63,690 bases of DNA from an uncultured Eggerthella sp. (GTDB lineage Bacteria > Actinomycetota > Coriobacteriia > Coriobacteriales > Eggerthellaceae): assembly GCA_900544455.1 (NCBI GenBank), contig UQVJ01000001.1:1-63690 (forward strand), read 5' to 3'. The notes under the pieces are model-generated. The model was not told the DNA's origin, did no database searches, and worked only from the letters and a program-made list of their open reading frames with translations. Positions 13,992 through 44,067 of the stretch are shown here, piece after piece (the first letter of the stretch is position 1; each line of letters starts with the position of its first letter). Position numbers and translations under genes: made by a program.

Positions 13992-14040
13992 AACCACAGT
14001 TTCGCAAGCGAATATGATTCGCTGAAGAAACCATCAAACC

Positions 14041-14312
14041 GTTGAAGCGGAAGTCAAAGCGAGTAGGCGCGCACAGAGAGTCCGGGATGCTGGGATCCGG
14101 ATCGAAAAGCCGTTCGCCAAATGGACCGCTGAGGGCGCATGCGAATGCAATTTGCTAGTAGGGTGCGACGTGAGGGCATACGTAAGTTGCCGGGGATATG
14201 TTGGTATCCTGCTAAGCGCACGATTCGTTTCGTGAAACAAGGTGGCACCGCGAGCTTTGTATTTTCTTAAAGCCCGTCCTTGATCGTAGAAGTATCAGGG
14301 ATGGGCTTTTTT
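14041..14312 (+). ncRNA. T-box riboswitch, Trp-specific, transcription-antitermination type
   Basis: Stem I (AGCGG..CCGCT) with AGAGAG and GCTGGGA boxes; specifier TGG at 14122-14124 followed by A; T-box AAGGTGGCACCGCG at 14239-14252; antiterminator arm CGTCCTTG; terminator AAGCCCGTCCTTGAT/ATCAGGGATGGGCTT followed by a T-tract. Confidence 0.93.
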
Positions 14313-14345
14313 GTTGCCTTTCCCGTGTAAGGAAAGGGCTAATCG

Positions 14346-15848
14346 ATGGACACTACGCTATTGCAGCCGAGCTTGGAAGAAGTTCGTGCTTTGGCTGCGC
14401 AGCCTGGCATTTGCCGCGTTCCCGTGAAACGTGAGCTGTTTGCCGACTGCATCACCACTATCGAGGCAATGCGTGCGCTGCGTGCTGCCAGCAACCATTG
14501 TTTCTTGCTGGAAAGCGCTGAGGCCGATCAGTGTTGGGGCCGCTATTCCTTTTTGGGCTTCAATCCCACGCTTGAGGTAACCTGCCTGGATGGGCAACTC
14601 AGCATTCGCCGCAATGTGGAAGGCGACGAACCGCTGCGCGAAACGCGTCAGGTCGATCACCCGGGCGCCATTATTCGCCAGATTATCGCAGAGAACAAGA
14701 GCGCCAAGGTTGAGGGGTTCCCAACATTTACTGGTGGTCTGGTGGGCTATTTCTCGTATGACTACCTCAAGTACGCTGAACCCACGCTGCGTCGTCCCGG
14801 TTTAGACCGTGAGGATTTTCTCGATGTTGACCTGATGCTGTTCGATCAGGTTATCTGCTTCGACAACTACCGCCAAAAGATCATCCTCATTGCAGGTGTT
14901 CGTGCCGACGACGTTGAGAACTCATACGCTCAGGCGCAAGCAAAGCTCGATGAGATTGAAGGCTTGTTGGTGGGGTCTGCTCGTTACGAATTTGCCCCTT
15001 TGAAGTTGAAGGAGCCGCTTGCGCCGCAGTTTTCAACCGAAGAGTTCTGCGAGAAGGTGGAAACTGCCAAGCGTCATATTTTCGAGGGCGACATATTCCA
15101 GGTGGTGCCTTCCAACCCCCGAACTGCGAAAGCGGAAGGAAGCCTGTTCGATACCTATCGTGTGTTGCGCAGCCAGAACCCTTCCCCATATATGTTCTAC
15201 TTCACCAGCGATGATGTGGAAATCGCGGGCGCATCTCCTGAAACGCTGGCCCGCTTGCAGGACGGCAGGCTGTTCACTTACCCCTTGGCTGGCACCCGCC
15301 CGCGCGGCGCCACTCCTGAAGAAGATCGAGCCATGGAGGCGGATCTTCTTGCTGACGAAAAGGAACGCGCCGAGCATGATATGCTCGTTGACCTTGGACG
15401 TAACGACTTGGGGCGCGTGTCTCAGCTGGGTAGCGTAAAGGTGGAAGAGTACCGAAATGTGCTGCGCTTTTCTCGGATCATGCATATCGGCTCAACCGTT
15501 ATCGGTCAACTTGCCGAAGGGAAAGACGCGGTGGATGTGATGGATTCCATCCTTCCGGCGGGCACGCTTTCCGGAGCACCCAAGCTGCGTGCCTGTCAGA
15601 TTATTCAGGATTTGGAGGGTGCCAAGCGCGGCATCTACGGCGGCGCCATCGGCTATCTGGACTTCACCGGCAATCTTGACACTTGCATTGGGATCCGTCT
15701 TGTTTACAAGAAAAACGGCCGCGTATGCGTGCAGACGGGCGCCGGCATCGTAGCTGACAGCGTTCCCGAAAGCGAAGACCGCGAATGCTACAACAAGGCG
15801 CGCGCGGTAATGGAAGCGCTGAGAACTGCCGAAGGGGGCCTGGCATGA
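14346..15848 (+). CDS. trpE: Anthranilate synthase component I
   Basis: LLESAE, GDIFQVVPS, NPSPYMF, PLAGTRPRG, AEHDMLVDLGRND, AGTLSGAPK. Confidence 0.97.
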   Translation: MDTTLLQPSLEEVRALAAQPGICRVPVKRELFADCITTIEAMRALRAASNHCFLLESAEADQCWGRYSFLGFNPTLEVTCLDGQLSIRRNVEGDEPLRETRQVDHPGAIIRQIIAENKSAKVEGFPTFTGGLVGYFSYDYLKYAEPTLRRPGLDREDFLDVDLMLFDQVICFDNYRQKIILIAGVRADDVENSYAQAQAKLDEIEGLLVGSARYEFAPLKLKEPLAPQFSTEEFCEKVETAKRHIFEGDIFQVVPSNPRTAKAEGSLFDTYRVLRSQNPSPYMFYFTSDDVEIAGASPETLARLQDGRLFTYPLAGTRPRGATPEEDRAMEADLLADEKERAEHDMLVDLGRNDLGRVSQLGSVKVEEYRNVLRFSRIMHIGSTVIGQLAEGKDAVDVMDSILPAGTLSGAPKLRACQIIQDLEGAKRGIYGGAIGYLDFTGNLDTCIGIRLVYKKNGRVCVQTGAGIVADSVPESEDRECYNKARAVMEALRTAEGGLA

Positions 15849-16420
15849 TCTACCTCATCGATAACTACGACAGCTTTTCCTACAACCTGTATCAGCTGAT
15901 AGGCGAAGTGGATCCCGCTATCGAGGTTCTTCGAAACGACGCGCTTTCGGTTGAAGATCTCGAGGCGAAAAACCCTGAAGCGGTGATTCTTTCCCCCGGT
16001 CCCGGTCGGCCTGCCGATGCGGGTATTTGCGAAGAAGTGGTGCTGAAGCTATCCGGCAAAGTTCCCATCTTGGGTGTGTGTTTGGGGCATCAGGCAATAT
16101 GCGAAGCATTCGGCGGCACGGTGGGGTATGCCAAGGAGCTGATGCACGGCAAATCGTCTCTGGTAAAGGTTGATGCGCAATCACCCCTGTTCAACGGCTT
16201 GCCTGCTAAGGTTCGGGTTGCTCGTTACCATTCACTTGCAGCCGACGAAGAAAGCCTTCCCAAATGTTTGCGGGTTATTTCCCGTGCCGATGATGGGGAA
16301 GTGATGGCTGTGCAGCATGCCGAGTTCCCTACCTATGGCGTTCAGTTCCATCCCGAATCGATTCTCACCCCCGATGGCCGGGCGATGATCGAAAACTTCT
16401 TGGCCATAGCAACGAAGTAA
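15845..16420 (+). CDS. trpG: Anthranilate synthase component II (glutamine amidotransferase)
   Basis: LIDNYDSF, SPGPGRP, GVCLGHQ, QFHPES; ATGA overlap with trpE. Confidence 0.96.
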   Translation: MIYLIDNYDSFSYNLYQLIGEVDPAIEVLRNDALSVEDLEAKNPEAVILSPGPGRPADAGICEEVVLKLSGKVPILGVCLGHQAICEAFGGTVGYAKELMHGKSSLVKVDAQSPLFNGLPAKVRVARYHSLAADEESLPKCLRVISRADDGEVMAVQHAEFPTYGVQFHPESILTPDGRAMIENFLAIATK

Positions 16421-16459
16421 TACACGGCGTTTGCGCCGATTGCGCGAAAGGAAGCAACG

Positions 16460-17485
16460 ATGATCAGGGAAGCAATTTTCAAGCTGGTAAACAAGCAGGA
16501 CCTAACCTACGACGAAGCCTACGACGTGATCAACGAGATCATGTCGGGCGAAACCACCCAGGTGCAGACGGCAGCATTTCTTTCGGCTCTTTCCACAAAG
16601 TCGACCAAGAGCGAAACGATTGCCGAAATTGCAGGGTGCGCTGCCGCCATGCGCAGCCATGCCACCAAGGTTGACTACGATAAGCCGCTGCTCGAGATTG
16701 TGGGCACGGGCGGCGACAAAACTGGCAGTTTCAACATTTCCACCACCGCAGCGCTTGTTATTGCGGCGGGTGGGGCAAAGGTTGCCAAGCACGGAAACCG
16801 TGCGGCATCAAGCAAATCGGGTACGGCCGATTGCCAAGAGGCGCTGGGTGTGAACATCGAGCAGAGCCCCGAGCTGTGTAAGAAGCTCCTCGACGAAGTG
16901 GGCATGTGCTTCTTCTTCGCCCAGAAATACCATACAGCCATGCGCTACGTGGGCCCCATTCGCAAAGAGCTGGGTTTTCGCACCGTGTTCAATATTCTAG
17001 GCCCGCTCACCAACCCCGCCTCGCCCGACAAGATGATTCTCGGCGTATACGATGAATCTTTGGTGCAGCCTTTGGCGCATGTGCTGGTGAGCCTGGGTGT
17101 GAAGGACGGCATGGTGGTATATGGGCAGGATTGTCTGGATGAGCTTTCCACGGCATGCCCCACCACGGTATGTGAATTCCACGGCGACGATTATTTGTCT
17201 TACGTTCTTACGCCTGATGAATTGGGCATGAAGCGCTGCATGAAAGAAGATCTGCAAGGCGGTTCTCCGGAAGAAAATGCGCAGATCACACGTGACATTC
17301 TTTTCGGCAAGGAAGTGGGAGCAAAGCGCGACACCGTTTTGCTGAATGCTGCTGCGGGCCTCTACATTGCCGGGTTGGTGCCCTCGTTGAAAGATGGCGT
17401 CGCAAGGGCCCAGGAGCTTATCGACAGCAGCAAAGCAGCCGAAACGCTGGAGTCGTACATTCGAGTATCAAATCAGGAGGCTTAA
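16460..17485 (+). CDS. trpD: Anthranilate phosphoribosyltransferase
   Basis: [32 protein letters not shown]. Confidence 0.97.
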
Positions 17486-18307
17486 GTGACCATCCTTGAT
17501 GAAATAGCCGCCTACACACGTCAGCGCATGGCGGAAGAGGAAGGGCTGACGCCAACAGCCAGCCTTCGGCAGCAGGCTTGCGCCATGGCATCAGCTGAGC
17601 GTGAAGCCAACGGTGGTGTATTTCCCTTTCGATTCAGCGCCGCATTGGCAGAGCCCGGCCTTTCCTTTATCTGCGAAGTTAAGAAAGCGTCTCCTTCTAA
17701 GGGGGTTATTGCCGAAGAGTTTCCGTATCTGGATATCGCAAAGAGCTACGAGGCGGCAGGGGCGGCGGCGATTTCCTGCTTAACCGAGCCGAAATGGTTC
17801 ATGGGTGCCGATGCCTATTTGACCGAGATAGCGGCAGAAACTTCTGTGCCTGTGTTGAGGAAAGATTTTGTGGTTTGCGAGCGCATGATTTACCAGGCCA
17901 AAGTACTCGGTGCCTCTGCTGTGCTTTTGATCTGTGCCATTTTAAGCGACGAACAACTTGTTGCTTATCGTGAGCTTGCTGAAAGCCTGGGTCTTTCGGT
18001 TTTGGTTGAAGCGCATGACGAAAAGGAAATTGCCCGCGCGGTTGCCTCGGGTGCAAAGATCGTTGGTGTGAACAACCGCAACCTGAAGGATTTTAGCGTC
18101 GACTTCGATAACGTCCGCCGTCTTCGCGCGCATATTCCTGAAGACGTGCTGTACGTGGCGGAATCGGGCGTGGCAAGCGCCGATGATGTTGCGGCTATCG
18201 CCCAGATGGGTGCGGATGCTGCCTTGATCGGTGAAGCACTGATGCGCGCCGATGATAAACAGGCAACGTTGGCGGGATTCCGTGCTGCGGCTGAGGTGGC
18301 ACGATGA
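17486..18307 (+). CDS. trpC: Indole-3-glycerol phosphate synthase
   Basis: ICEVKKASPSKG, SCLTEP, LRKDF, GVNNRNL, AESGV. Confidence 0.97.
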   Translation: MTILDEIAAYTRQRMAEEEGLTPTASLRQQACAMASAEREANGGVFPFRFSAALAEPGLSFICEVKKASPSKGVIAEEFPYLDIAKSYEAAGAAAISCLTEPKWFMGADAYLTEIAAETSVPVLRKDFVVCERMIYQAKVLGASAVLLICAILSDEQLVAYRELAESLGLSVLVEAHDEKEIARAVASGAKIVGVNNRNLKDFSVDFDNVRRLRAHIPEDVLYVAESGVASADDVAAIAQMGADAALIGEALMRADDKQATLAGFRAAAEVAR

Positions 18308-36371: not shown

Positions 36372-36648
36372 GATTCCTTCTCTTTCTCGTAGTAAGCGGG
36401 TTGCCCCGATTTTATTCGTAATGCGCGTTGTGCGCTAAGCAAGCAAAGCAGAGAGCACATGCGCAACATATTTAGTATGACGTTTCGGCAAATGCGTGGG
36501 GCACTGGTCGGGGAGCGTTGCCGTGCTTTCGTTGGACGGCGTATTTAAGCCGGGTGCTGCACCTTTCTGTCCTTTGTGCTGTACACGCAGCATGGTAATG
36601 GGTTGGTATGATGGAACGAAAAGAAACTGCGCTTTAAGGAGCTTAAGC

Positions 36649-38298
36649 ATGAACGAAATAAAATGCCCGCACTGCGGAAAGGTGTTCCAGGTAGACGAGC
36701 GCGGTTTCGCCGATATCTTGCGTCAGGTGCGCACTGCCGAATTCGACAAGGAAATAGCTCAGCGCGAAGGTATGCTGCAAGAGAGGAATGCCCAGGCGGT
36801 AAAGCTTGCGGTTGCCAAGGCTCAGCAGGATGCTCAAGCGGAAGCTGCTCAGCGCGATGCTCTCATTGCTGAATTGGAAACGCGTCTTGCTGCCGAAAAG
36901 CGCGAACGCGAACAGGCAGAAAAGTCGTCTCAGCTTGAGCATGCCAACGAACTTGAAGCGGCGCTTGCGAAGAAGCAAGTTGAAATTGCCCAGTTACAGG
37001 CGGATGTGAAAAGGTTATCGGCCGACCATGATGCGGAAAATCGTATTGCCAAGGCGGAGCATGAACGTCTGCTTTCCGATGCAACCGCTCAGCGTGATGC
37101 GGAGATTGCGGCATTGCGCCAGCAGATTTCCTTTCAGGAGAGCGCCTTCAAACAACAACTTGAATCGCAGATTCAGCACTATTCTCAGAAGATGGCCGCC
37201 GATAAGGCGGAAAGTGCTCGTGTGGCTGCTGAAGAATCGGCAAAGCTGCAGCAGACCATCGCCGCGCAGAAGCAGCAGATAGAGTCGCAAACCCAGCAGT
37301 TCAAAGCAGAAAAAGAGCTTGCGGTAAGCGAAGCTCGTGCTGCTGCCGAGCGTCAGCGCGATGAGCTGGCTGCTCAGGTTAAGCTTCAGGAAGCCCAGTC
37401 TGCGCAGGAGAAGGCCGCCCTGCGCGAGAAGATGACCAACGAACTTGCCGCAAAAGATGAGCTCATCAAGTACAAGGACGAAGAAATCGCCCGCGTCAAG
37501 GAAATGAAAGCACGTCTTTCCACCAAAATGGTTGGCGAATCGCTTGAGCGTCATTGCGAAACCGAGTTCAACAAAATTCGTGCCACGGCATTCCCTCATG
37601 CGTATTTCGAAAAAGACAACGATGTGGTCGAGGGCACCAAGGGCGATTTCGTCTTCCGCGAAACCGATCCGGCAACGGGCGAAGAAGTGGTTTCCATCAT
37701 GTTCGAGATGAAGAACGAAAACGATGAAACGCGCACTAGGCACAAGAACGAGGATTTCTTTGCCAAGCTCGACTCCGACCGCAAAAAGAAGGGGTGCGAG
37801 TATGCGGTTCTGTGTACCATGCTTGAACCCGACAACGATCTTTATAACGAAGGTATTGTCGACGTGAGCTACCGATATGAAAAGATGTACGTTATCCGTC
37901 CGCAATTCTTCATACCCATCATTTCCATTCTGCGTAACGCTGCGTTGTCTGCCCTGCAGTACAAAACCGAGCTTGCCGAAGTACGCAACCAGAACATCGA
38001 CATCACGAACTTCGAAAACTCGATGGAAGATTTCAAAACAAAGTTTGCACGCAATTACGACCTTGCTAGCCGCAAGTTCCAGACGGCTATAGATGAAATT
38101 GATAAGACCATCGACCACCTGCAGAAAACGAAAGAAGCGCTGCTGGGCAGCGAAAGAAATCTGCGCTTGGCAAACGACAAGGCGCAAGACCTTACCATTA
38201 AGAAGCTTACGCGCAAGAATCCCACTATGAAGGCGAAGTTTGCTGCGCTGAAGGAAACTGAAAGCGCCTTGCCTGACGGTGTTGATCAAGAAGATTAG
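36649..38298 (+). CDS. DUF2130-family protein (Zn knuckle, long coiled coil, C-terminal globular domain)
   Basis: [10 protein letters not shown] start (AAGGAG RBS); [35 protein letters not shown]. Confidence 0.85.
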
Positions 38299-38423: not shown

Positions 38424-39611
38424 TTGGTGACCCAGAAAATGACAGGCAGGCAATGGCTCGCCCTTGCAGGCATCGCTGTTGCTGCGTTTGTGTTCAATTC
38501 TTCGGAGTTTATGCCAGTAGGCTTGCTTACCGATATCGGCAAAACGTTTGGAACCAGTGAGGCTACGACGGGTATGCTGGTTTCGGTGTATGCGTGGGCG
38601 GTAATGCTGCTTTCCGTGCCGTTGATGATCATTGCGACGCGCTTAGATTTTCGCAGGCTGCTCCTGGTGGTTATTGTTGTGTTTCTTATTGGGCAGGTGC
38701 TTACATCTCTGTCGACGAGCTACTGGATGCTCATGGCGGCACGTATGGTGGTTGCTTGCGCTCATTCGGTATTCTGGGCCATCGCCGCGCCTATCGCAGT
38801 GCGTCTGGTGCCGAAAAACAAGCGGGCTCTTGCTTTGAGCGTTGTCGAAACGGGTACGGCCGTTGCCGCTATCGTAGGATTGCCATTGGGTCGAGCTATT
38901 GGTTTGGCGGTGGGGTGGCGCCTAACATTTGCCATTGTGGCGGTAATATCTGTGCTCTTGCTGGTGTATCTGCTTATCACTTTGCCCTGGGTTCCCGGTG
39001 CGGAGCCTTTCAGCGTTGGTCAGTTGCCGGGGTTGTTTCAGAACAAGGGTTTGGTGGCATTGTTCATTCTTACCGCGCTGTACGCATGGGGCTACTACAC
39101 GGGCTACAGCTATATTGAGCCTTTCTTGCTGCAAGTGGCAGGATTGGAAAACGATGTGGTTACCCTGGTTCTTTCCGTGTTTGGCGTTGCAAGTATCATC
39201 GGCAGCATATTGTGCTCCAAGCTGTATCCTCGCTTCCGTTTTCCCTTCTTCAAGGTCATCACCATCGGTGTGCCGGTAGCCTTGCTGCTGATGCATGCTG
39301 CGGCGGGTTTGGGCCTTGCGGCAATACTTGGCGTTGTTGTTCTGTGGGGCATAAGCGCGGCTTCGGTAAGCGTTGTGTATCAGGCAGAAATTATCAATGT
39401 TTCTTCCGACGAAGAAGAAACGGTTGCCATGGCATTTTTCTCGGGAATCTTCAACTTCGGTATCGGTACCGGTGCTCTTTTGGGTGGTCAGGTGGTCAAT
39501 ACGCTAGGCATTGCGAGCGTGTTTTATGCGGGCGGCGTTATTGGCGCGGTTTCGGTTCTGTTCTGCTTGGCTGTGGCGGTTGGGCGCCTTAAGCGGTATT
39601 CCGTGAAATAG
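38424..39611 (+). CDS. MFS transporter (DHA1, SotB-like)
   Basis: FNSSEFMPVGLL, about 12 TM segments, FSGIFNFGIGTGALLGG. Confidence 0.9.
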   Translation: MVTQKMTGRQWLALAGIAVAAFVFNSSEFMPVGLLTDIGKTFGTSEATTGMLVSVYAWAVMLLSVPLMIIATRLDFRRLLLVVIVVFLIGQVLTSLSTSYWMLMAARMVVACAHSVFWAIAAPIAVRLVPKNKRALALSVVETGTAVAAIVGLPLGRAIGLAVGWRLTFAIVAVISVLLLVYLLITLPWVPGAEPFSVGQLPGLFQNKGLVALFILTALYAWGYYTGYSYIEPFLLQVAGLENDVVTLVLSVFGVASIIGSILCSKLYPRFRFPFFKVITIGVPVALLLMHAAAGLGLAAILGVVVLWGISAASVSVVYQAEIINVSSDEEETVAMAFFSGIFNFGIGTGALLGGQVVNTLGIASVFYAGGVIGAVSVLFCLAVAVGRLKRYSVK

Positions 39612-39839
39612 CCCGAAACGTTCAGTTTCTCGTTCGATGCTTTAAAGGTGCAGGTATGCGCGGTTTGGACCATTGGTCTTTATTTCGCCTTTGTTTCGAA
39701 AATGTCCAGACTCTGTGACGATGCGAAATTAATCAATGTTGGGCAATTGAAACTTTTGCCGAAAGGGCGAATATAGAGCCATCGAACGCAAGGGGCGTTC
39801 GGTATAAGCGCTTGGGCGCTTAAGTGTTAGGACGAACTT

Positions 39840-39887
39840 TTGAATTACCGCAACCTGCATACTGAAATTATCAGCTCCATTATTTAG
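39840..39887 (+). CDS. Putative Ile-rich attenuator leader peptide MNYRNLHTEIISSII
   Basis: AGGA at 39829-39832, TTG start 7 nt later, 4 Ile among the last 6 codons, TAG at 39885-39887; followed by competing hairpins and a terminator. Confidence 0.6.
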   Translation: MNYRNLHTEIISSII

Positions 39888-39944
39888 GGCTCGGGTTGCT
39901 TTGAATCAGCTGCCCGAACCCTAATCGGGCAGCTGATGGTTTTG

Positions 39945-39987
39945 AATCCGGAGGCTGTTTAAAGAAACGGCTTCCGGATTTTTTATT
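39945..39987 (+). terminator. Attenuator-type intrinsic terminator in the 5' leader of an MFS gene
   Basis: AATCCGGAGGCTGTTT/AAACGGCTTCCGGATT followed by TTTTATT, about 100 nt before the ATG and more than 330 nt after the previous gene. Confidence 0.8.
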
Positions 39988-40088
39988 CTCGTAACATCTG
40001 CTCCCCGCGCGTCGTCTTCTTCGAACAGCCTTTTGATCCCAAACCTTGATTCATCGGTTCACGGATTGAAGGAAAAGAAGGAAACGGA

Positions 40089-41423
40089 ATGTCAAGTACG
40101 GTAGCAACAGCATCGGCAATGGCGCCTGTGGGTGTCGGATCGAAAGAGAAGAATTCAACAGCTGAAATCGTGGCAGCTTCAATGGTGGGAACCGCTATCG
40201 AGTTCTACGACAATTACTGCTACAGTATCGCGGCGGCAAGCTATTTTGGGCTGATCTTCTTTACCGATGTTGCGAAGTCCGATCCGGTGTTGGCAACGTT
40301 GCTTTCATTCGTGACTTTCGCCGTTTCGTTTTTGGCACGTCCGTTTGGCTCGTTGATATTCGGTCATTTTGGCGACAAGCTTGGCCGTAAGAAAACACTA
40401 GTGGTTGCCCTGATGCTTATGGGCATCGCAACCTTTGTGGTGGGTTTGCTTCCCGGGTATGAGGTTCTTGGCCCGACTTCCGTTGTTCTTTTGTGCGTGT
40501 GCCGCGCTTGCCAGGGTTTGGGCCTTGGTGGCGAATGGTCCGGCGCTGCCTTAGTAGCGACCGAAAATGCCCCGAAGGGGAAGCGAGCCCTGTACGGTGC
40601 GTTCCCCAACATGGGCGCTCCCATCGGCTTCTTTTGCGCATATGGCGTAAACCTGCTGCTTGATTCTACCTTGCCCGCCGATGCGATGGTTGCGTGGGGT
40701 TGGCGTATCCCGTTCCTGCTTTCCGCATTGCTGGTGGTAGTTGGGCTGGTTGTGCGCTTGCGCATGACGGAAACTCCCGTATTCCAGAAAGCACAGCGCG
40801 AAAACCGCACGGTAAAGATGCCTCTTGCTATGCTTCTTCGTCACAACTGGAGGCAGGTTGTGCTCGGCACCTGCGCGGTTAGCATTACCTATACGCTCTT
40901 CTATGTGTTGGGAACTTGGTCGCTTTCCTACGGTGTGTCAACCTTGGGCTTCACTCAGCAGCAGTATCTGGGAATGCAGATGGTATCGGTGTTCTTCTTT
41001 GCGGGCTTCATCGTTGTCGGTTGCCTGAGTGCTGATCGTTTCGGCAGGAAGCCTGTGGTTGCACTTGCTACCGTGGCAACCTTGGTGTTTGCGCTCTTTG
41101 CTCCCATGCTGCTTTCTGTTCATAGCGCTTTGAACGTGATGCTGTTCCTCTGCATCGGTTTTATGTGCATGGGCGCTGTTTTCGGGCCCACCGGTTCGTA
41201 CTTGCCTGAGTTGTTCCCCGCCCGCGTTCGTTATTGCGGTTCTGGCCTCTCCTATAACTTGGCTGCAATTGTCGGCGGCGCCTTCGCTCCCACTATTGCT
41301 TCGGCGCTTGTTATGAATTTCGGCATCATGTCCTTGGGCTGGTACCTGGGAGGTATGGCTGTTGTTTCTCTTGCTGCCCTGTTCTTCTTCCGTGAAAGCA
41401 AGGATGTTAACTACGAGGAATAG
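40089..41423 (+). CDS. MFS transporter, metabolite:H+ symporter (MHS; ShiA/YhjE-like)
   Basis: GTAIEFYD, ARPFG...GHFGDKLGRK, GLGGEWSGA, GWRIPFL, ETPVF. Confidence 0.93.
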   Translation: MSSTVATASAMAPVGVGSKEKNSTAEIVAASMVGTAIEFYDNYCYSIAAASYFGLIFFTDVAKSDPVLATLLSFVTFAVSFLARPFGSLIFGHFGDKLGRKKTLVVALMLMGIATFVVGLLPGYEVLGPTSVVLLCVCRACQGLGLGGEWSGAALVATENAPKGKRALYGAFPNMGAPIGFFCAYGVNLLLDSTLPADAMVAWGWRIPFLLSALLVVVGLVVRLRMTETPVFQKAQRENRTVKMPLAMLLRHNWRQVVLGTCAVSITYTLFYVLGTWSLSYGVSTLGFTQQQYLGMQMVSVFFFAGFIVVGCLSADRFGRKPVVALATVATLVFALFAPMLLSVHSALNVMLFLCIGFMCMGAVFGPTGSYLPELFPARVRYCGSGLSYNLAAIVGGAFAPTIASALVMNFGIMSLGWYLGGMAVVSLAALFFFRESKDVNYEE

Positions 41424-41580
41424 CGTCAGGCATCGGCTTGCCTAGAAATCAAAGAATGTCCCTTGATACAGCGTTGAACTGCCCCACATTTCTCTCGATT
41501 CAAGGAGGGGCGGTTCACGGTGCGTCGAGGGGCATTCTTCGCTTGATGGGGTGGGGTTGTTTCCGGTGATGCTATCATGG

Positions 41581-41598
41581 TGTACATAAAAGTACCCA
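41581..41598 (+). promoter_or_regulatory. Candidate WYL-regulator binding site (copy 1)
   Basis: TGTACA-TAAAA-GTACCCA upstream of the WYL gene; matches a copy upstream of the HIRAN gene. Confidence 0.45.
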
Positions 41599-41624
41599 GT
41601 ACTGGTTCAATTGAAAGGTTCGCC

Positions 41625-42605
41625 ATGGCAACTACAGCTCAGAAACTCAAGCTTATGTATCTGGCAAAGCTCTTAGGGAATGAAACTGATGACGAACATG
41701 GCCTTACCGGTCCGCAGATTATTCAGCGCTTGGCTGAGTTGGGCATCGCAGTTGAGCGGAAGACGCTCTATCGCGATTTGGATTGCTTGCGCGAATTCGG
41801 CTACAACATCGTGAAGTATCAGCGTTCACCTATTGAATATGGCCTTGCTTCGCGTGAGTTCCAGGAAAGCGAATTGCTGTTGTTAGCGGATGCGGTGCAA
41901 TCTTCCCGTTTCCTTACCGAGCGTAAGTCGAATGCGTTAGTTAAGGCCATTGGTAAGCTGGGTAGCAAATATTTGGCAGACGATCTAAGAAGGAACCTTC
42001 ATGTTGAGGGGCGTATCAGATCGCAGAATGAATCGGTGTTCTACAACATCGACGCTATTCAGCGAGCTATTTCCGCTAAGAAAAAAGTACGTTTCCGTTA
42101 CTTCAAATACGACAATCGGAAGAAACGGGTTCTGCAGCGCGATGGGCGCTTCTATGAGGAAACGCCGTTGCACCTGGTGTATATGGATGACTGCTATTAC
42201 CTGGTTGCCTGGAACGATAAGCATGAAAGCACCACTAACTACCGCGTAGACAGGATGCTGAACATCGATGTGTCTGAAGAAGTTGCAACGAGCAACGAGC
42301 AAACGGCTGAATTTGATGCAGCGAAGTACCAGAAGAGGGTATTCGGCATGTACAGCGGCGATGCTGTTGCGGTTACCCTGCTTGTGAAGCCAGATGCCAT
42401 CAGCACAGTAATCGACCGCTTCGGCGATGCAGCTGATGCCGAAGCGGTCGAGGATGGCTCGATGCGCGTGCGCACCAAGGTTATGCAGGCGCCTACGTTC
42501 TATGGCTGGTTGGCAACTCTGGGAACCAGCGTGATAATCGAGCAGCCGCAATTCTTGAAAGAGGAGTACCGAACGTACCTCCAGGGGATTATCGAACAGT
42601 ACTGA
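41625..42605 (+). CDS. HTH-WYL-WCX transcriptional regulator
   Basis: ETDDEHGLT...ERKTLYRDL HTH; YYLVA and YRVDRM WYL core; FGMYSG and FYGWL WCX; GAAAGG RBS. Confidence 0.93.
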   Translation: MATTAQKLKLMYLAKLLGNETDDEHGLTGPQIIQRLAELGIAVERKTLYRDLDCLREFGYNIVKYQRSPIEYGLASREFQESELLLLADAVQSSRFLTERKSNALVKAIGKLGSKYLADDLRRNLHVEGRIRSQNESVFYNIDAIQRAISAKKKVRFRYFKYDNRKKRVLQRDGRFYEETPLHLVYMDDCYYLVAWNDKHESTTNYRVDRMLNIDVSEEVATSNEQTAEFDAAKYQKRVFGMYSGDAVAVTLLVKPDAISTVIDRFGDAADAEAVEDGSMRVRTKVMQAPTFYGWLATLGTSVIIEQPQFLKEEYRTYLQGIIEQY

Positions 42606-42887: not shown

Positions 42888-43220
42888 CTACCTTGGTCGA
42901 TTGTCAGTTACGTACAGGCCAACGCGAACCTGCTTCCAGGGAGCAGCTTCTTTGTCGACTTGGAGAATGCGGCATTCGAGGATGTTCCTGTGACCAAAGT
43001 GGAACAAGGTTGAAGCCAGGCTGTTCTGATCGGCGGGAACATAGCCGACCATGACGCCATTGAAGTACAGGGCGATTGACTCTGGGTCGTAGGGGTTGCC
43101 TGGTTCGGGGCAAAGTTCAATGCCGTCGCCAATGCTCATCTGATTGATAACGAGGGCGCCATCGTAGTGTTGGAATCCTGCAATGAAGAATGTTGAGAGA
43201 TGTCGACTGGGCTGATACAT
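42888..43220 (-). CDS. Stand-alone HIRAN-domain protein
   Basis: IAGFQHY, EPGNPYDPESIAL and VGYVP HIRAN motifs; AAGGAGGAGG RBS before ATG 43220. Confidence 0.92.
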   Translation of the reverse strand: MYQPSRHLSTFFIAGFQHYDGALVINQMSIGDGIELCPEPGNPYDPESIALYFNGVMVGYVPADQNSLASTLFHFGHRNILECRILQVDKEAAPWKQVRVGLYVTDNRPR

Positions 43221-43419
43221 GGCCTCCTCCTTAAAACGGCTGGATGGCAAGAGGCGAGGGGGCCGGTAAGGTGGCCGGCCCCTTTCTTCGACCACGACAA
43301 GCAAATAAGAAAGGATGAAAGTGAGTTGCATGACTAGGAGTTTGTTTGCTTGTATGTGGCGGCCTCGGTAGGAATGGCCTCTTGATGGTTTGAATAATAC
43401 GCAGATCGCAGCTTGTATG

Positions 43420-43437
43420 TGGGTACCACAGTGGACA
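43420..43437 (-). promoter_or_regulatory. Candidate WYL-regulator binding site (copy 2)
   Basis: Minus strand TGTCCA-CTGTG-GTACCCA, just after a terminator and upstream of HIRAN. Confidence 0.45.
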
Positions 43438-43460
43438 TCAAGAAATAATTGTGAAATACG

Positions 43461-43491
43461 AAAGAAAAAAGGCCCGCGTTGGCGAGCCTTT
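43461..43491 (-). terminator. Intrinsic terminator
   Basis: Minus strand AAAGGCTCGC-CAAC-GCGGGCCTTT followed by TTTCTTT. Confidence 0.8.
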
Positions 43492-43581
43492 GGTGGTTGC
43501 TGGTATGGGTATTTGCTAAGTGCGCTTTGCGCGAGCCGCTGCGCCTTTGCGGATAAACAGTAGGGGTTGGTTTTGCTGCCG

Positions 43582-44067
43582 TTATTGTCCGATCTTTGAA
43601 CCGCAGGCGATGCAGAAAACGTTTTCGGCGTTTTGTTTCGTTCCGCATTTGGGGCAGTACTGAACGGAAGGGTCGATAACGGGCTGGCACTTTGCTGCGG
43701 TCGCAGTGGTTTCTGAATTCTTCCTTGAGGCTTCTTGCGGCGCCGGAGCCTTTGGGGCTTTCTGCGGTGCGGGAGCCTTTGGGGTTTCCTGTGGCGCTGG
43801 GGTGGCTTTGGCTGCAGCAGGGGAAGAAGCGGTGGAAGAGTCTGAATTGCCTGAGTTCGAACTGGTATTGGCTGGCCCCTCTGCTTTCCGCTTCTTGTTG
43901 TTCGCAATCATTTCAAGGATGGCGCCCAAGATAGCGGGGGAAAAGAACCCGATGGTTTCGAACAGTGCCGGTCCGCTGCTGAAGTCGATGAATTCTTGCC
44001 CCGTAATGATGGCGCAAAGTATCGCGACTGCCTGGATAACATAAAGAATAATTGCAGCTGTTTTCAA
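43582..44067 (-). CDS. Membrane protein with Pro/Ala/Lys linker and C-terminal zinc ribbon
   Basis: TTG start after AGAAGGAG; two hydrophobic helices; YCPKCG...FCIACG. Confidence 0.8.
   Translation of the reverse strand: MKTAAIILYVIQAVAILCAIITGQEFIDFSSGPALFETIGFFSPAILGAILEMIANNKKRKAEGPANTSSNSGNSDSSTASSPAAAKATPAPQETPKAPAPQKAPKAPAPQEASRKNSETTATAAKCQPVIDPSVQYCPKCGTKQNAENVFCIACGSKIGQ
43731..43810 (-). repeat. 27-bp tandem coding repeat (about 3 imperfect copies)
   Basis: Encodes KATPAPQETP / KAPAPQKAP / KAPAPQEA. Confidence 0.8.

Follow-up and report, generated by a model that had tools for sequence, protein, structure and literature searches.

Isoleucine-rich leader peptides and a candidate transcription attenuator upstream of MHS-like and other uptake genes in Eggerthella and its relatives

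Leader-peptide attenuation is known mostly from biosynthetic operons of Proteobacteria, with few cases from Actinobacteria and Firmicutes. In the his operon leader of Salmonella and E. coli, six RNA segments pair in relay, and the position of the ribosome picks either the odd set, which gives the terminator, or the even set, which gives the antiterminator. A leader open reading frame (ORF) also precedes a transporter gene in the mgtL/mgtA system of Salmonella, where the ORF carries proline codons, the transporter moves Mg2+, and the speed of translation sets expression. Here we describe a 63,690-nt stretch of DNA from an uncultured Eggerthella sp. (contig UQVJ01000001.1; the whole stretch is hereafter called the window) in which positions 39781-39990 make up a strongly structured leader, with a short upstream ORF (uORF), mutually exclusive hairpins and an intrinsic terminator, 100 nt upstream of a gene for an MHS-like carrier. 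We consider it highly probable, from comparison with related loci, that this region is a cis-acting, ribosome-dependent, isoleucine-responsive transcription attenuator which governs read-through into the carrier gene.

Like the his leader, the region combines a short ORF, in which the regulatory codons cluster, with a downstream chain of segments whose neighbours pair alternately. The two differ in that isoleucine, not histidine, would be sensed, in that uptake carriers and not a biosynthetic operon lie downstream, and in that the segment inside the ORF (a, below) pairs with the fourth segment (d) and not with its neighbour; there is no sequence relation between them. The likeness to mgtL/mgtA is confined to the leader ORF ahead of a transporter gene; the signal, the mode of termination and the family are different.

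Published reports describe further leaders that bear comparison. Rli60, the ilv-leu leader of Listeria monocytogenes, was first catalogued as a small RNA and is now an experimentally demonstrated, ribosome-mediated attenuator with a 13-residue peptide, which responds to branched-chain amino acids through overlapping terminator and antiterminator hairpins and works with CodY (Brenner et al. 2018, PMC5864092). The leader in the window shares with it the layout of a Gram-positive leader-peptide attenuator with overlapping terminator and antiterminator; unlike Rli60, which controls biosynthesis, it belongs to a different RNA family, stands before carriers and is predicted from sequence only. Candidate leader peptides of ilvB in Corynebacterium, Mycobacterium and Streptomyces contain runs of Ile, Val and Leu codons and are followed by terminators (Seliverstov et al. 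2005, PMC1262725). These too are actinobacterial short ORFs with branched-chain codons ahead of a terminator, but they precede biosynthetic genes and overlap their terminators, and the genomes of that study included no Coriobacteriia (PMC1262725). In Firmicutes, T-box leaders occur before amino-acid transporter genes, where the specificity of the regulator hints at the substrate; as proposed here, low charging of one tRNA prevents the terminator and turns the transporter on (PMC2494555). The T-box reads uncharged tRNA directly and needs no translation, whereas the proposed sensor in the window is the translating ribosome. Leaders for His have also been described in Firmicutes (Ashniev et al. 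2022).

The leader lies within a 477-nt gap between a gene of the major facilitator superfamily (MFS; 38424-39611) and the MHS-like MFS carrier gene. Its parts, and the gene that it would regulate, are as follows.

39829-39832, + strand: Shine-Dalgarno (SD)-like AGGA, 7 nt before the TTG start
39840-39887, + strand: leader uORF of 15 codons plus stop, with a TTG start and Ile codons at 39867-39872 and 39879-39884
39864-39878, + strand: segment a, within the uORF; pairs with d in the minimum free energy (MFE) fold
39884-39900, + strand: segment b, beginning at the stop codon; pairs with c
39905-39924, + strand: segment c; pairs with b or d
39925-39943, + strand: segment d; pairs with c (13-bp hairpin 39905-39937), with e (candidate antiterminator, through 39927-39934 and 39937-39939) or with a
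39944-39960, + strand: segment e, 5' arm of the terminator; 39948-39950 and 39953-39960 are the antiterminator partner
39965-39981, + strand: segment f, 3' arm of the terminator; pairs with e
39944-39987, + strand: intrinsic terminator, with a 17-pair stem (39944-39981) and a T-rich tail to 39987; -25.6 kcal/mol
40089-41423, + strand: regulated carrier gene, 444 aa; Pfam Sugar_tr and MFS_1

The uORF would encode (L/M)NYRNLHTEIISSII*, with four Ile codons and the stop codon at 39885. A preliminary description of the window had picked out this TTG-started, Ile-rich ORF with its ribosome-binding site, and its reading of the peptide was confirmed, with the AGGA as the SD-like site. The perfect 13-bp hairpin at 39905-39937 that it reported is likewise present, and the pairing of the stop-codon segment (39884-39895 with 39913-39924) holds with one C.A mismatch, RNAfold placing it in the same register with extra pairs. 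The pairing that it had seen between the Ile codons and the sequence downstream turned out to be the core of an outer stem of 13+2 bp (39864-39878 with 39928-39943) which is part of the MFE fold, and the terminator that it put at 39945-39987 is the same feature as the one listed here. The fold of the 210-nt leader reaches -93.9 kcal/mol, against -58.1 +/- 4.3 for shuffled sequences (z = -8.40; none of 200 was equal or better). By RNAfold, this MFE structure is a long composite hairpin, not the 13-bp hairpin, in which a pairs with 39928-39943 and b with 39908-39924, followed by the terminator. What the preliminary description lacked was an antiterminator; pairing counts, given below, back d:e (39927-39939 with 39948-39960) in that role.

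We propose that translation of the 15-codon uORF would accompany the synthesis of segments b to f by RNA polymerase, that these segments would pair in relay, and that the signal sensed would be the supply of charged Ile-tRNA. With Ile plentiful, the ribosome would reach the stop at 39885 and cover b, leaving c:d and the e:f terminator to form and to halt transcription near 39987. With Ile scarce, it would stall at the first Ile pair (39867-39872), covering a and leaving b free; b:c would then form, the released d would pair with e, the terminator would come too late and the carrier gene would be transcribed. If the uORF were not translated at all, a:d and b:c would form and e:f would again terminate. 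The choice would be made by kinetic competition between the folds, and most likely the carrier is switched on when the cell is short of Ile.

The coding signature of the uORF was examined in 45 leaders, and insertions and deletions in a structure-guided alignment of 30 of them. An in-frame start was present in 45/45 and an SD-like tetramer 3-16 nt upstream of it in 41/45. The leaders encode 41 distinct peptides, mostly of 11-25 residues; for two reads, of 68 and 27 residues, the rule for picking the start probably overshot. At least 3 Ile occur in the last 10 codons of 44/45. The exception stands before a LIV-type operon, and its last 10 codons include 4 Leu, 1 Val and 2 Ile; this fits a system which carries all three amino acids, and suggests from a single example that the codons track the regulated gene. 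ATT and ATC interchange at the Ile codons. The spacing between the two conserved Ile blocks was 12 nt in 21 leaders, 9 nt in seven and 15 nt in two, so that its indels are multiples of three in 30/30, while the mostly untranslated distance that separates the second block from the b core was 11, 12, 13 or 14 nt. In-frame indels together with conserved start and SD sites point to translation of the uORF. By eye, the changes seen within the genus in the first nine codons include synonymous ones at third positions, and none shifts the frame or introduces a stop. Depending on the lineage, the ORF stops where b starts or extends three codons into b, and either way the Ile blocks hold their position relative to b. 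We infer that the uORF is translated and that the ribosome stalls at its Ile codons. The preliminary description had read the arrangement as ribosome-mediated attenuation, and the conservation of Ile codons, start codon, frame and hairpin chain among differing peptides supports that layout.

The competing pairings were counted in two alignments, one of 22 Eggerthellaceae leaders and one of 30 diverse leaders, the latter fitted to the c:d plus e:f fold with b:c and d:e not used in the fit. Among the Eggerthellaceae leaders, 91.4% of cells were paired in c:d (2 pairs changed on both sides), 95.6% in e:f (4 pairs) and 91.5% in b:c (2 pairs); d:e was paired in 100% over its 11 pairs, of which 7 were invariant, 4 had one-sided changes and none had changed on both sides. 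Among the 30 diverse leaders, c:d and e:f together were paired in 92.8% of cells, with 23/28 pairs changed on both sides (c:d, 89.9% and 7/12; e:f, 95.0% and 16/16). The alternative set, b:c plus d:e, was paired in 88.2% of cells, against 33-47% when slid; 9/20 of its pairs had changed on both sides, a count equalled by 1/500 shuffles, and its covariation score was 0.244 against 0.161, equalled by 0/500 shuffles. Taken singly, b:c was paired in 89.1% (5/9 pairs changed on both sides) and d:e in 87.5% (4/11). In the window, d:e joins 39927-39934 with 39953-39960 and 39937-39939 with 39948-39950; the enclosed loop differs in length and sequence from genus to genus. These counts support an alternative pairing, d:e, which would occupy the 5' arm of the terminator and exclude the terminator. 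The a:d pairing was found in 71% of cells, against 25-51% when slid, with weak covariation, and is moderately supported as a lineage-dependent default fold. Another candidate, b:e (39891-39897 with 39945-39951), was rejected as the antiterminator of the family; in the 30-leader comparison it was not conserved, being paired in 63.1% of cells against 64.2% when slid by one.

The effect of the ribosome was modelled by cutting away the RNA as far as 13 nt beyond the A-site codon's first base and folding the remainder up to where f begins. Across 25 Coriobacteriia leaders, placing the ribosome on the stop or the last Ile codon gave c:d and a pairing probability of 0.25-0.59 for the terminator 5' arm; placing it on an Ile codon at least 4 codons before the stop gave b:c and d:e, and a pairing probability of 0.55-0.93 for the arm. 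The stalled value exceeded the stop-codon value in 25/25 of these leaders, and in several lineages d:e arose from a stall as late as the second-last codon. In the window, e was occupied only when b was free, whichever stalled-state fold was taken, and a mask of 8 nt gave the same picture.

The carrier comparison set comprised the best 80 loci of 570 carrier relatives in species-representative genomes, with orthologous carriers 52-99% identical. A simple rule, which took the upstream short ORF richest in Ile over its last 10 codons with a cut-off of at least 3 Ile, flagged 30/80 loci; two of these (L038 and L039) were rejected as the C-terminus of an upstream gene, leaving 28. A covariance model found a full-length match upstream, on the carrier strand, at 29/80 loci, namely these 28 and L029, where the leader lies further upstream. 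The alignment of orthologues that the preliminary description had called for thus recovered a conserved Ile-rich uORF before 29 of the 80 carriers. The leader-bearing loci belong to Eggerthellaceae (labelled Eggerthella, Senegalimassilia, Slackia and Ellagibacter), to Atopobiaceae/Olsenella and to Lactobacillaceae (4/7 loci); among the 80 loci, the model found none in Bifidobacterium, Arthrobacter or the remaining lineages.

A first model (R1), built from 21 Eggerthellaceae leaders, matched the Atopobiaceae and Lactobacillaceae leaders over the full length of the model, with E-values of 1e-4 to 5e-12; a second (R2) was rebuilt from 30 diverse leaders. R1 matched 23/151 genomes of the window's class, once each. 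R2 gave full-length matches in 28/151 genomes of its order, three weak matches being left uncounted, and in 5/151 genomes of its phylum, all within the order; as a specificity control, it matched 0/140 phylum genomes outside that order. Weak model matches (L149, L150, G103:C22, G037, G275 and a second match at L077) were left out of the family. In the window's own genome (1.83 Mb, 147 contigs, 93% complete) the covariance-model search found the leader in a single copy. A scan of that genome for Ile-rich short ORFs (4 or more Ile among the final 8 codons, with a T-run) gave 3 places; the ORFs on C133 and C2 were rejected, having no clear terminator with a gene behind or lying within a coding region.

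Within the genus, 10/58 genomes have the leader, and in them it is near-invariant (approximately 39781 to 39987). In the ten-genome alignment, variation is seen in the promoter spacer, past the terminator and in the opening codons of the carrier gene. An eleventh match in the genus, G052, is a 27-nt fragment only. Near-invariance amid varying flanks, even at the start of the carrier gene, indicates that the leader is under selection.

The product of the carrier gene is clearly an MFS member. Its nearest subfamily is MHS, the TIGR00883 model giving the best score of 15 families over its full length, at 402.7 bits and so below the curated cut-off of 443.45. The gene behind the leader is not always of this kind. 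In genus g13 the leader was found in 17/26 genomes with R1 and 16/17 with R2, and is followed by a CstA-family carrier gene, 15 of which were confirmed by Pfam; tblastn found no MHS-like carrier behind the g13 leaders. In these CstA-type copies the gene begins 14-48 nt past the model match. The CstA gene of the window's own genome has no leader before it. Genome G026 carries two leaders 2.8 kb apart, one before a LIV-type binding protein (Peripla_BP_6, nearest to the high-affinity branched-chain amino-acid binding protein) together with a BPD_transp_2 permease. Behind the other lies a gene distantly related to those for 2-oxopent-4-enoate hydratases, and then one for a class I/II aminotransferase. 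In G280, one leader precedes a similar hydratase-like gene and one precedes CstA. No further LIV-type leaders were found in the family of G026, where 2/19 genomes matched, namely G026 and one with a weak partial match. In every case the leader lies directly before, and on the same strand as, an uptake or amino-acid gene. The neighbours of the carrier vary between lineages, and only L079 has a class IV aminotransferase. The company that the leader keeps (LIV-type genes, CstA, the hydratase-like gene with its aminotransferase, and the aminotransferase of L079) argues for a role in Ile supply, and the carrier would then import Ile or something convertible to it. For the substrates guessed in the preliminary description (Ile, a branched keto acid or 2-methylbutyrate), this context is no more than indirect.

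As to these neighbours themselves, the L079 aminotransferase (L079:1-885, - strand, Paucilactobacillus) is of the branched-chain or D-amino-acid type, and its gene adjoins the leader-carrier unit in divergent orientation. The hydratase-like proteins (at loci L151, G026:C26:85500-92100, - strand, and L152, G280:C1:441300-444800) are 269-345 aa long and match 2-oxopent-4-enoate and 2-oxo-hept-4-ene-1,7-dioate hydratases distantly, at 55-60 bits, far under the cut-offs; the G280 gene is followed by xanthine-dehydrogenase-like subunits.

Upstream of the leader, the following features were recognized.

39700-39723, + strand: conserved upstream block, (near-)invariant in 10 genomes and also present in leaderless orthologues of the same genus
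39747-39777, + strand: candidate promoter, with a -35-like element at 39747-39752 and a -10-like element within 39769-39777; position conserved
39781-39803 and 39805-39822, + strand: two 5'-terminal hairpins, predicted folds with stems invariant and loops variable in the genus

Members of the genus which lack the leader have a 77%-identical carrier, and in them the same block as at window 39700-39777 stands directly before the gene's 5' untranslated region. Since this putative promoter block directly precedes the carrier in leaderless orthologues, the leader would sit inside the transcription unit of the carrier. In those orthologues (L007-L009, L038-L040) the 39700-39723 block lies about 100-170 nt before the ATG; it is possibly an operator, or may be a promoter-upstream element, ahead of a shared promoter. 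The transcript probably starts near 39781, and the 5'-terminal hairpins probably stabilize the 5' end of the RNA. By eye, L030 and L032 have a 5' hairpin at the same place with a different stem sequence. The MFS gene at 38424-39611 stops 170 nt short of the position where the leader transcript is presumed to begin; it resembles Cmx/CmrA-type efflux carriers and is nearest to the 'sugar transporter' model PRK03545 (369 bits, cut-off 401).

Between the terminator and the carrier gene, a motif around AAACAGC after a T/C-rich run (window approximately 40017-40088) recurs in several Eggerthellaceae genera (L025-L045), and the last 70 nt before the carrier ATG appear conserved within the genus by eye. 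This region could be a second regulatory site or a promoter. A different conserved element occurs upstream of the carrier in Bifidobacterium loci L046, L047, L055, L057, L058, L061, L064, L066-L071 and L073, which lack the Ile leader; by eye it includes an 8-bp hairpin and lies about 150-200 nt before the gene, and no Rfam match was obtained in the five such loci scanned, alongside which two other Bifidobacterium loci were covered.

Rfam 15 detected no family in window 39000-41000 at E-values up to 10, including the T-box (RF00230), and the His leader was unmatched; the best match scored 22.6 bits against a cut-off of 100. In 26 related loci nothing reached the gathering score or an E-value up to 0.1 apart from tRNAs (20 orthologue loci gave tRNAs only, and the 6 others one spurious miRNA match below cut-off). 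Elsewhere in the window's genome the T-box model matched three places, at 74-80 bits against a gathering score of 93. One of these T-box-like leaders (window 14033-14284, + strand; 80.1 bits, E 6.6e-18) stands before genes 14346-18307 for anthranilate synthase I, glutamine amidotransferase, a phosphoribosyltransferase-family protein and indole-3-glycerol-phosphate synthase (trpE, trpG, trpD, trpC), and 14033-18307 looks like a trp operon under tRNA-sensing control. Another (C87:999-1204, - strand) precedes ilvD, which continues on contig C117 towards ilvC, and the third is at C20:21757-22011 (+ strand). From the T-box-like leaders before trp and ilv genes, the organism appears to employ tRNA sensing for biosynthesis and the leader peptide for a carrier. 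BrnQ was not found in this 93%-complete genome.

Several observations weigh against the attenuator as proposed. The full-length ground state contains the terminator (c:d plus e:f, -50.6 kcal/mol, versus b:c plus d:e, -35.6 kcal/mol) and d:e alone is weak (-14.1 kcal/mol), so that read-through must be kinetic, as in other attenuators. In the window, the stalled-state optimum is c:d plus b:e at -36.7, ahead of b:c plus d:e at -35.6 kcal/mol, and four Lactobacillaceae leaders, in which b lies inside the last codons, were not clean in the masking test. Swapping segments between lineages cost little duplex energy, about 3 kcal/mol (native d:e -16.5, swapped -13.4 +/- 4.3 kcal/mol); this control is weak because the leaders share core motifs and the automatic segmentation failed for two Lactobacillaceae leaders. 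The best-conserved Ile pair adjoins the stop, and since a ribosome stalled there covers b much as one at the stop does, and should act like it, the model leaves that pair unexplained. A consensus scan of 39400-40300 gave no sigma-70-type site, so the promoter call rests on conservation, and the 100 nt between the terminator and the carrier gene may hold a second promoter. A search for sequencing runs containing the stretch brought up no RNA run; one run of uncertain type matched 0.10 of its words. Finally, the window's genome has ilvC, ilvD and ilvE-like genes, and the cell is therefore probably not an Ile auxotroph.

Three other explanations were weighed. If the element were an independent small gene, for either a trans-acting small RNA (about 200 nt) or a 15-residue peptide, and ended in its own terminator, a separate promoter downstream would drive the carrier. 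The strong terminator in the ground-state fold, a near-invariance within the genus such as seed regions of small RNAs often show, and the 100 nt with a conserved stretch before the carrier gene in the window would all suit such a gene. We nonetheless think it quite unlikely, given that the element is always co-directional with, and directly before, an uptake or amino-acid gene, that the promoter block of leaderless orthologues places it within the carrier unit, and that the short gap in the CstA-type copies leaves hardly any room for a separate promoter, which argues for action in cis. As a side function of the attenuator, the terminated leader RNA could act in trans.

Alternatively, the nascent peptide might itself arrest the ribosome, in the manner of TnaC or the erm leaders, in response to free Ile or a ribosome-targeting drug and not to the supply of Ile-tRNA. 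A loose C-terminal pattern in Coriobacteriia (Ile, any, Ile, Thr or Ile, Ser, any, Ile, Ile, stop) would suit an arrest peptide, as would the position of the best-conserved Ile codons against the stop, which is poor for the classical model. On the other hand, the 41 distinct peptides share little but Ile and have lengths of 11-25 residues, the stop varies between the start of b and three codons inside it, the leader of the LIV operon switches to Leu and Val codons, and the genes under control serve import and not efflux or resistance; we therefore give this explanation little credence. A third possibility, that the uORF is incidental and the RNA a riboregulator which binds a protein, a tRNA or a ligand (a diverged T-box or a riboswitch, for instance), seems very improbable. 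The RNA is highly structured, and T-box-like leaders do occur elsewhere in the genome before trpE and ilvD, but no Rfam family matches the element in window 39000-41000 (E up to 10) or in the 26 related loci (gathering score or E up to 0.1), and the in-frame indels with conserved start and SD sites point to translation. The ribosome-dependent attenuator in cis remains our preferred reading.

Other genes near the carrier in the window encode a DUF2130 protein (36496-38298), a protein with WYL and WCX domains (41577-42605) and, on the opposite strand, a HIRAN-domain protein (42888-43907). They may be related to defence or repair and seem unconnected to the leader.

The mechanism is classical; no earlier account seems to exist of the family, of the bacteria that carry it or of the genes it targets. 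Searches of the open full-text literature, supplements and subscription journals aside, brought up no Ile leader peptide ahead of MHS, CstA or LIV genes in these taxa, and the available portions of Naville and Gautheret 2010, Seliverstov et al. 2005, Brenner et al. 2018 and Ashniev et al. 2022 do not describe the leader. It would represent a conserved attenuator family, absent from Rfam, in abundant and little-studied gut bacteria, attached to uptake genes; recognizing it would improve the annotation of an element otherwise taken for an intergenic terminator or a small RNA. For MHS-like and CstA carriers it offers a testable functional label, 'needed when Ile is short'. A single regulatory cassette appears to move between unrelated carrier genes and between two phyla, and the LIV-type leader provides one natural case in which the sensed amino acid seems to have changed together with the regulated gene, Ile giving way to Leu/Val/Ile. 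Perhaps, and we offer this only tentatively, the MHS-like, CstA, LIV-type ABC and hydratase-like members form an Ile-acquisition regulon, common to Coriobacteriales of the gut and certain Lactobacillaceae. In that case, besides Ile or peptides, the MHS-like and CstA carriers would also take up 2-oxo-acid precursors for transamination to Ile, the hydratase-like enzyme would have its place in a salvage step not yet described, and the leader would serve as a codon-readable label for the substrates of carriers which lack one.

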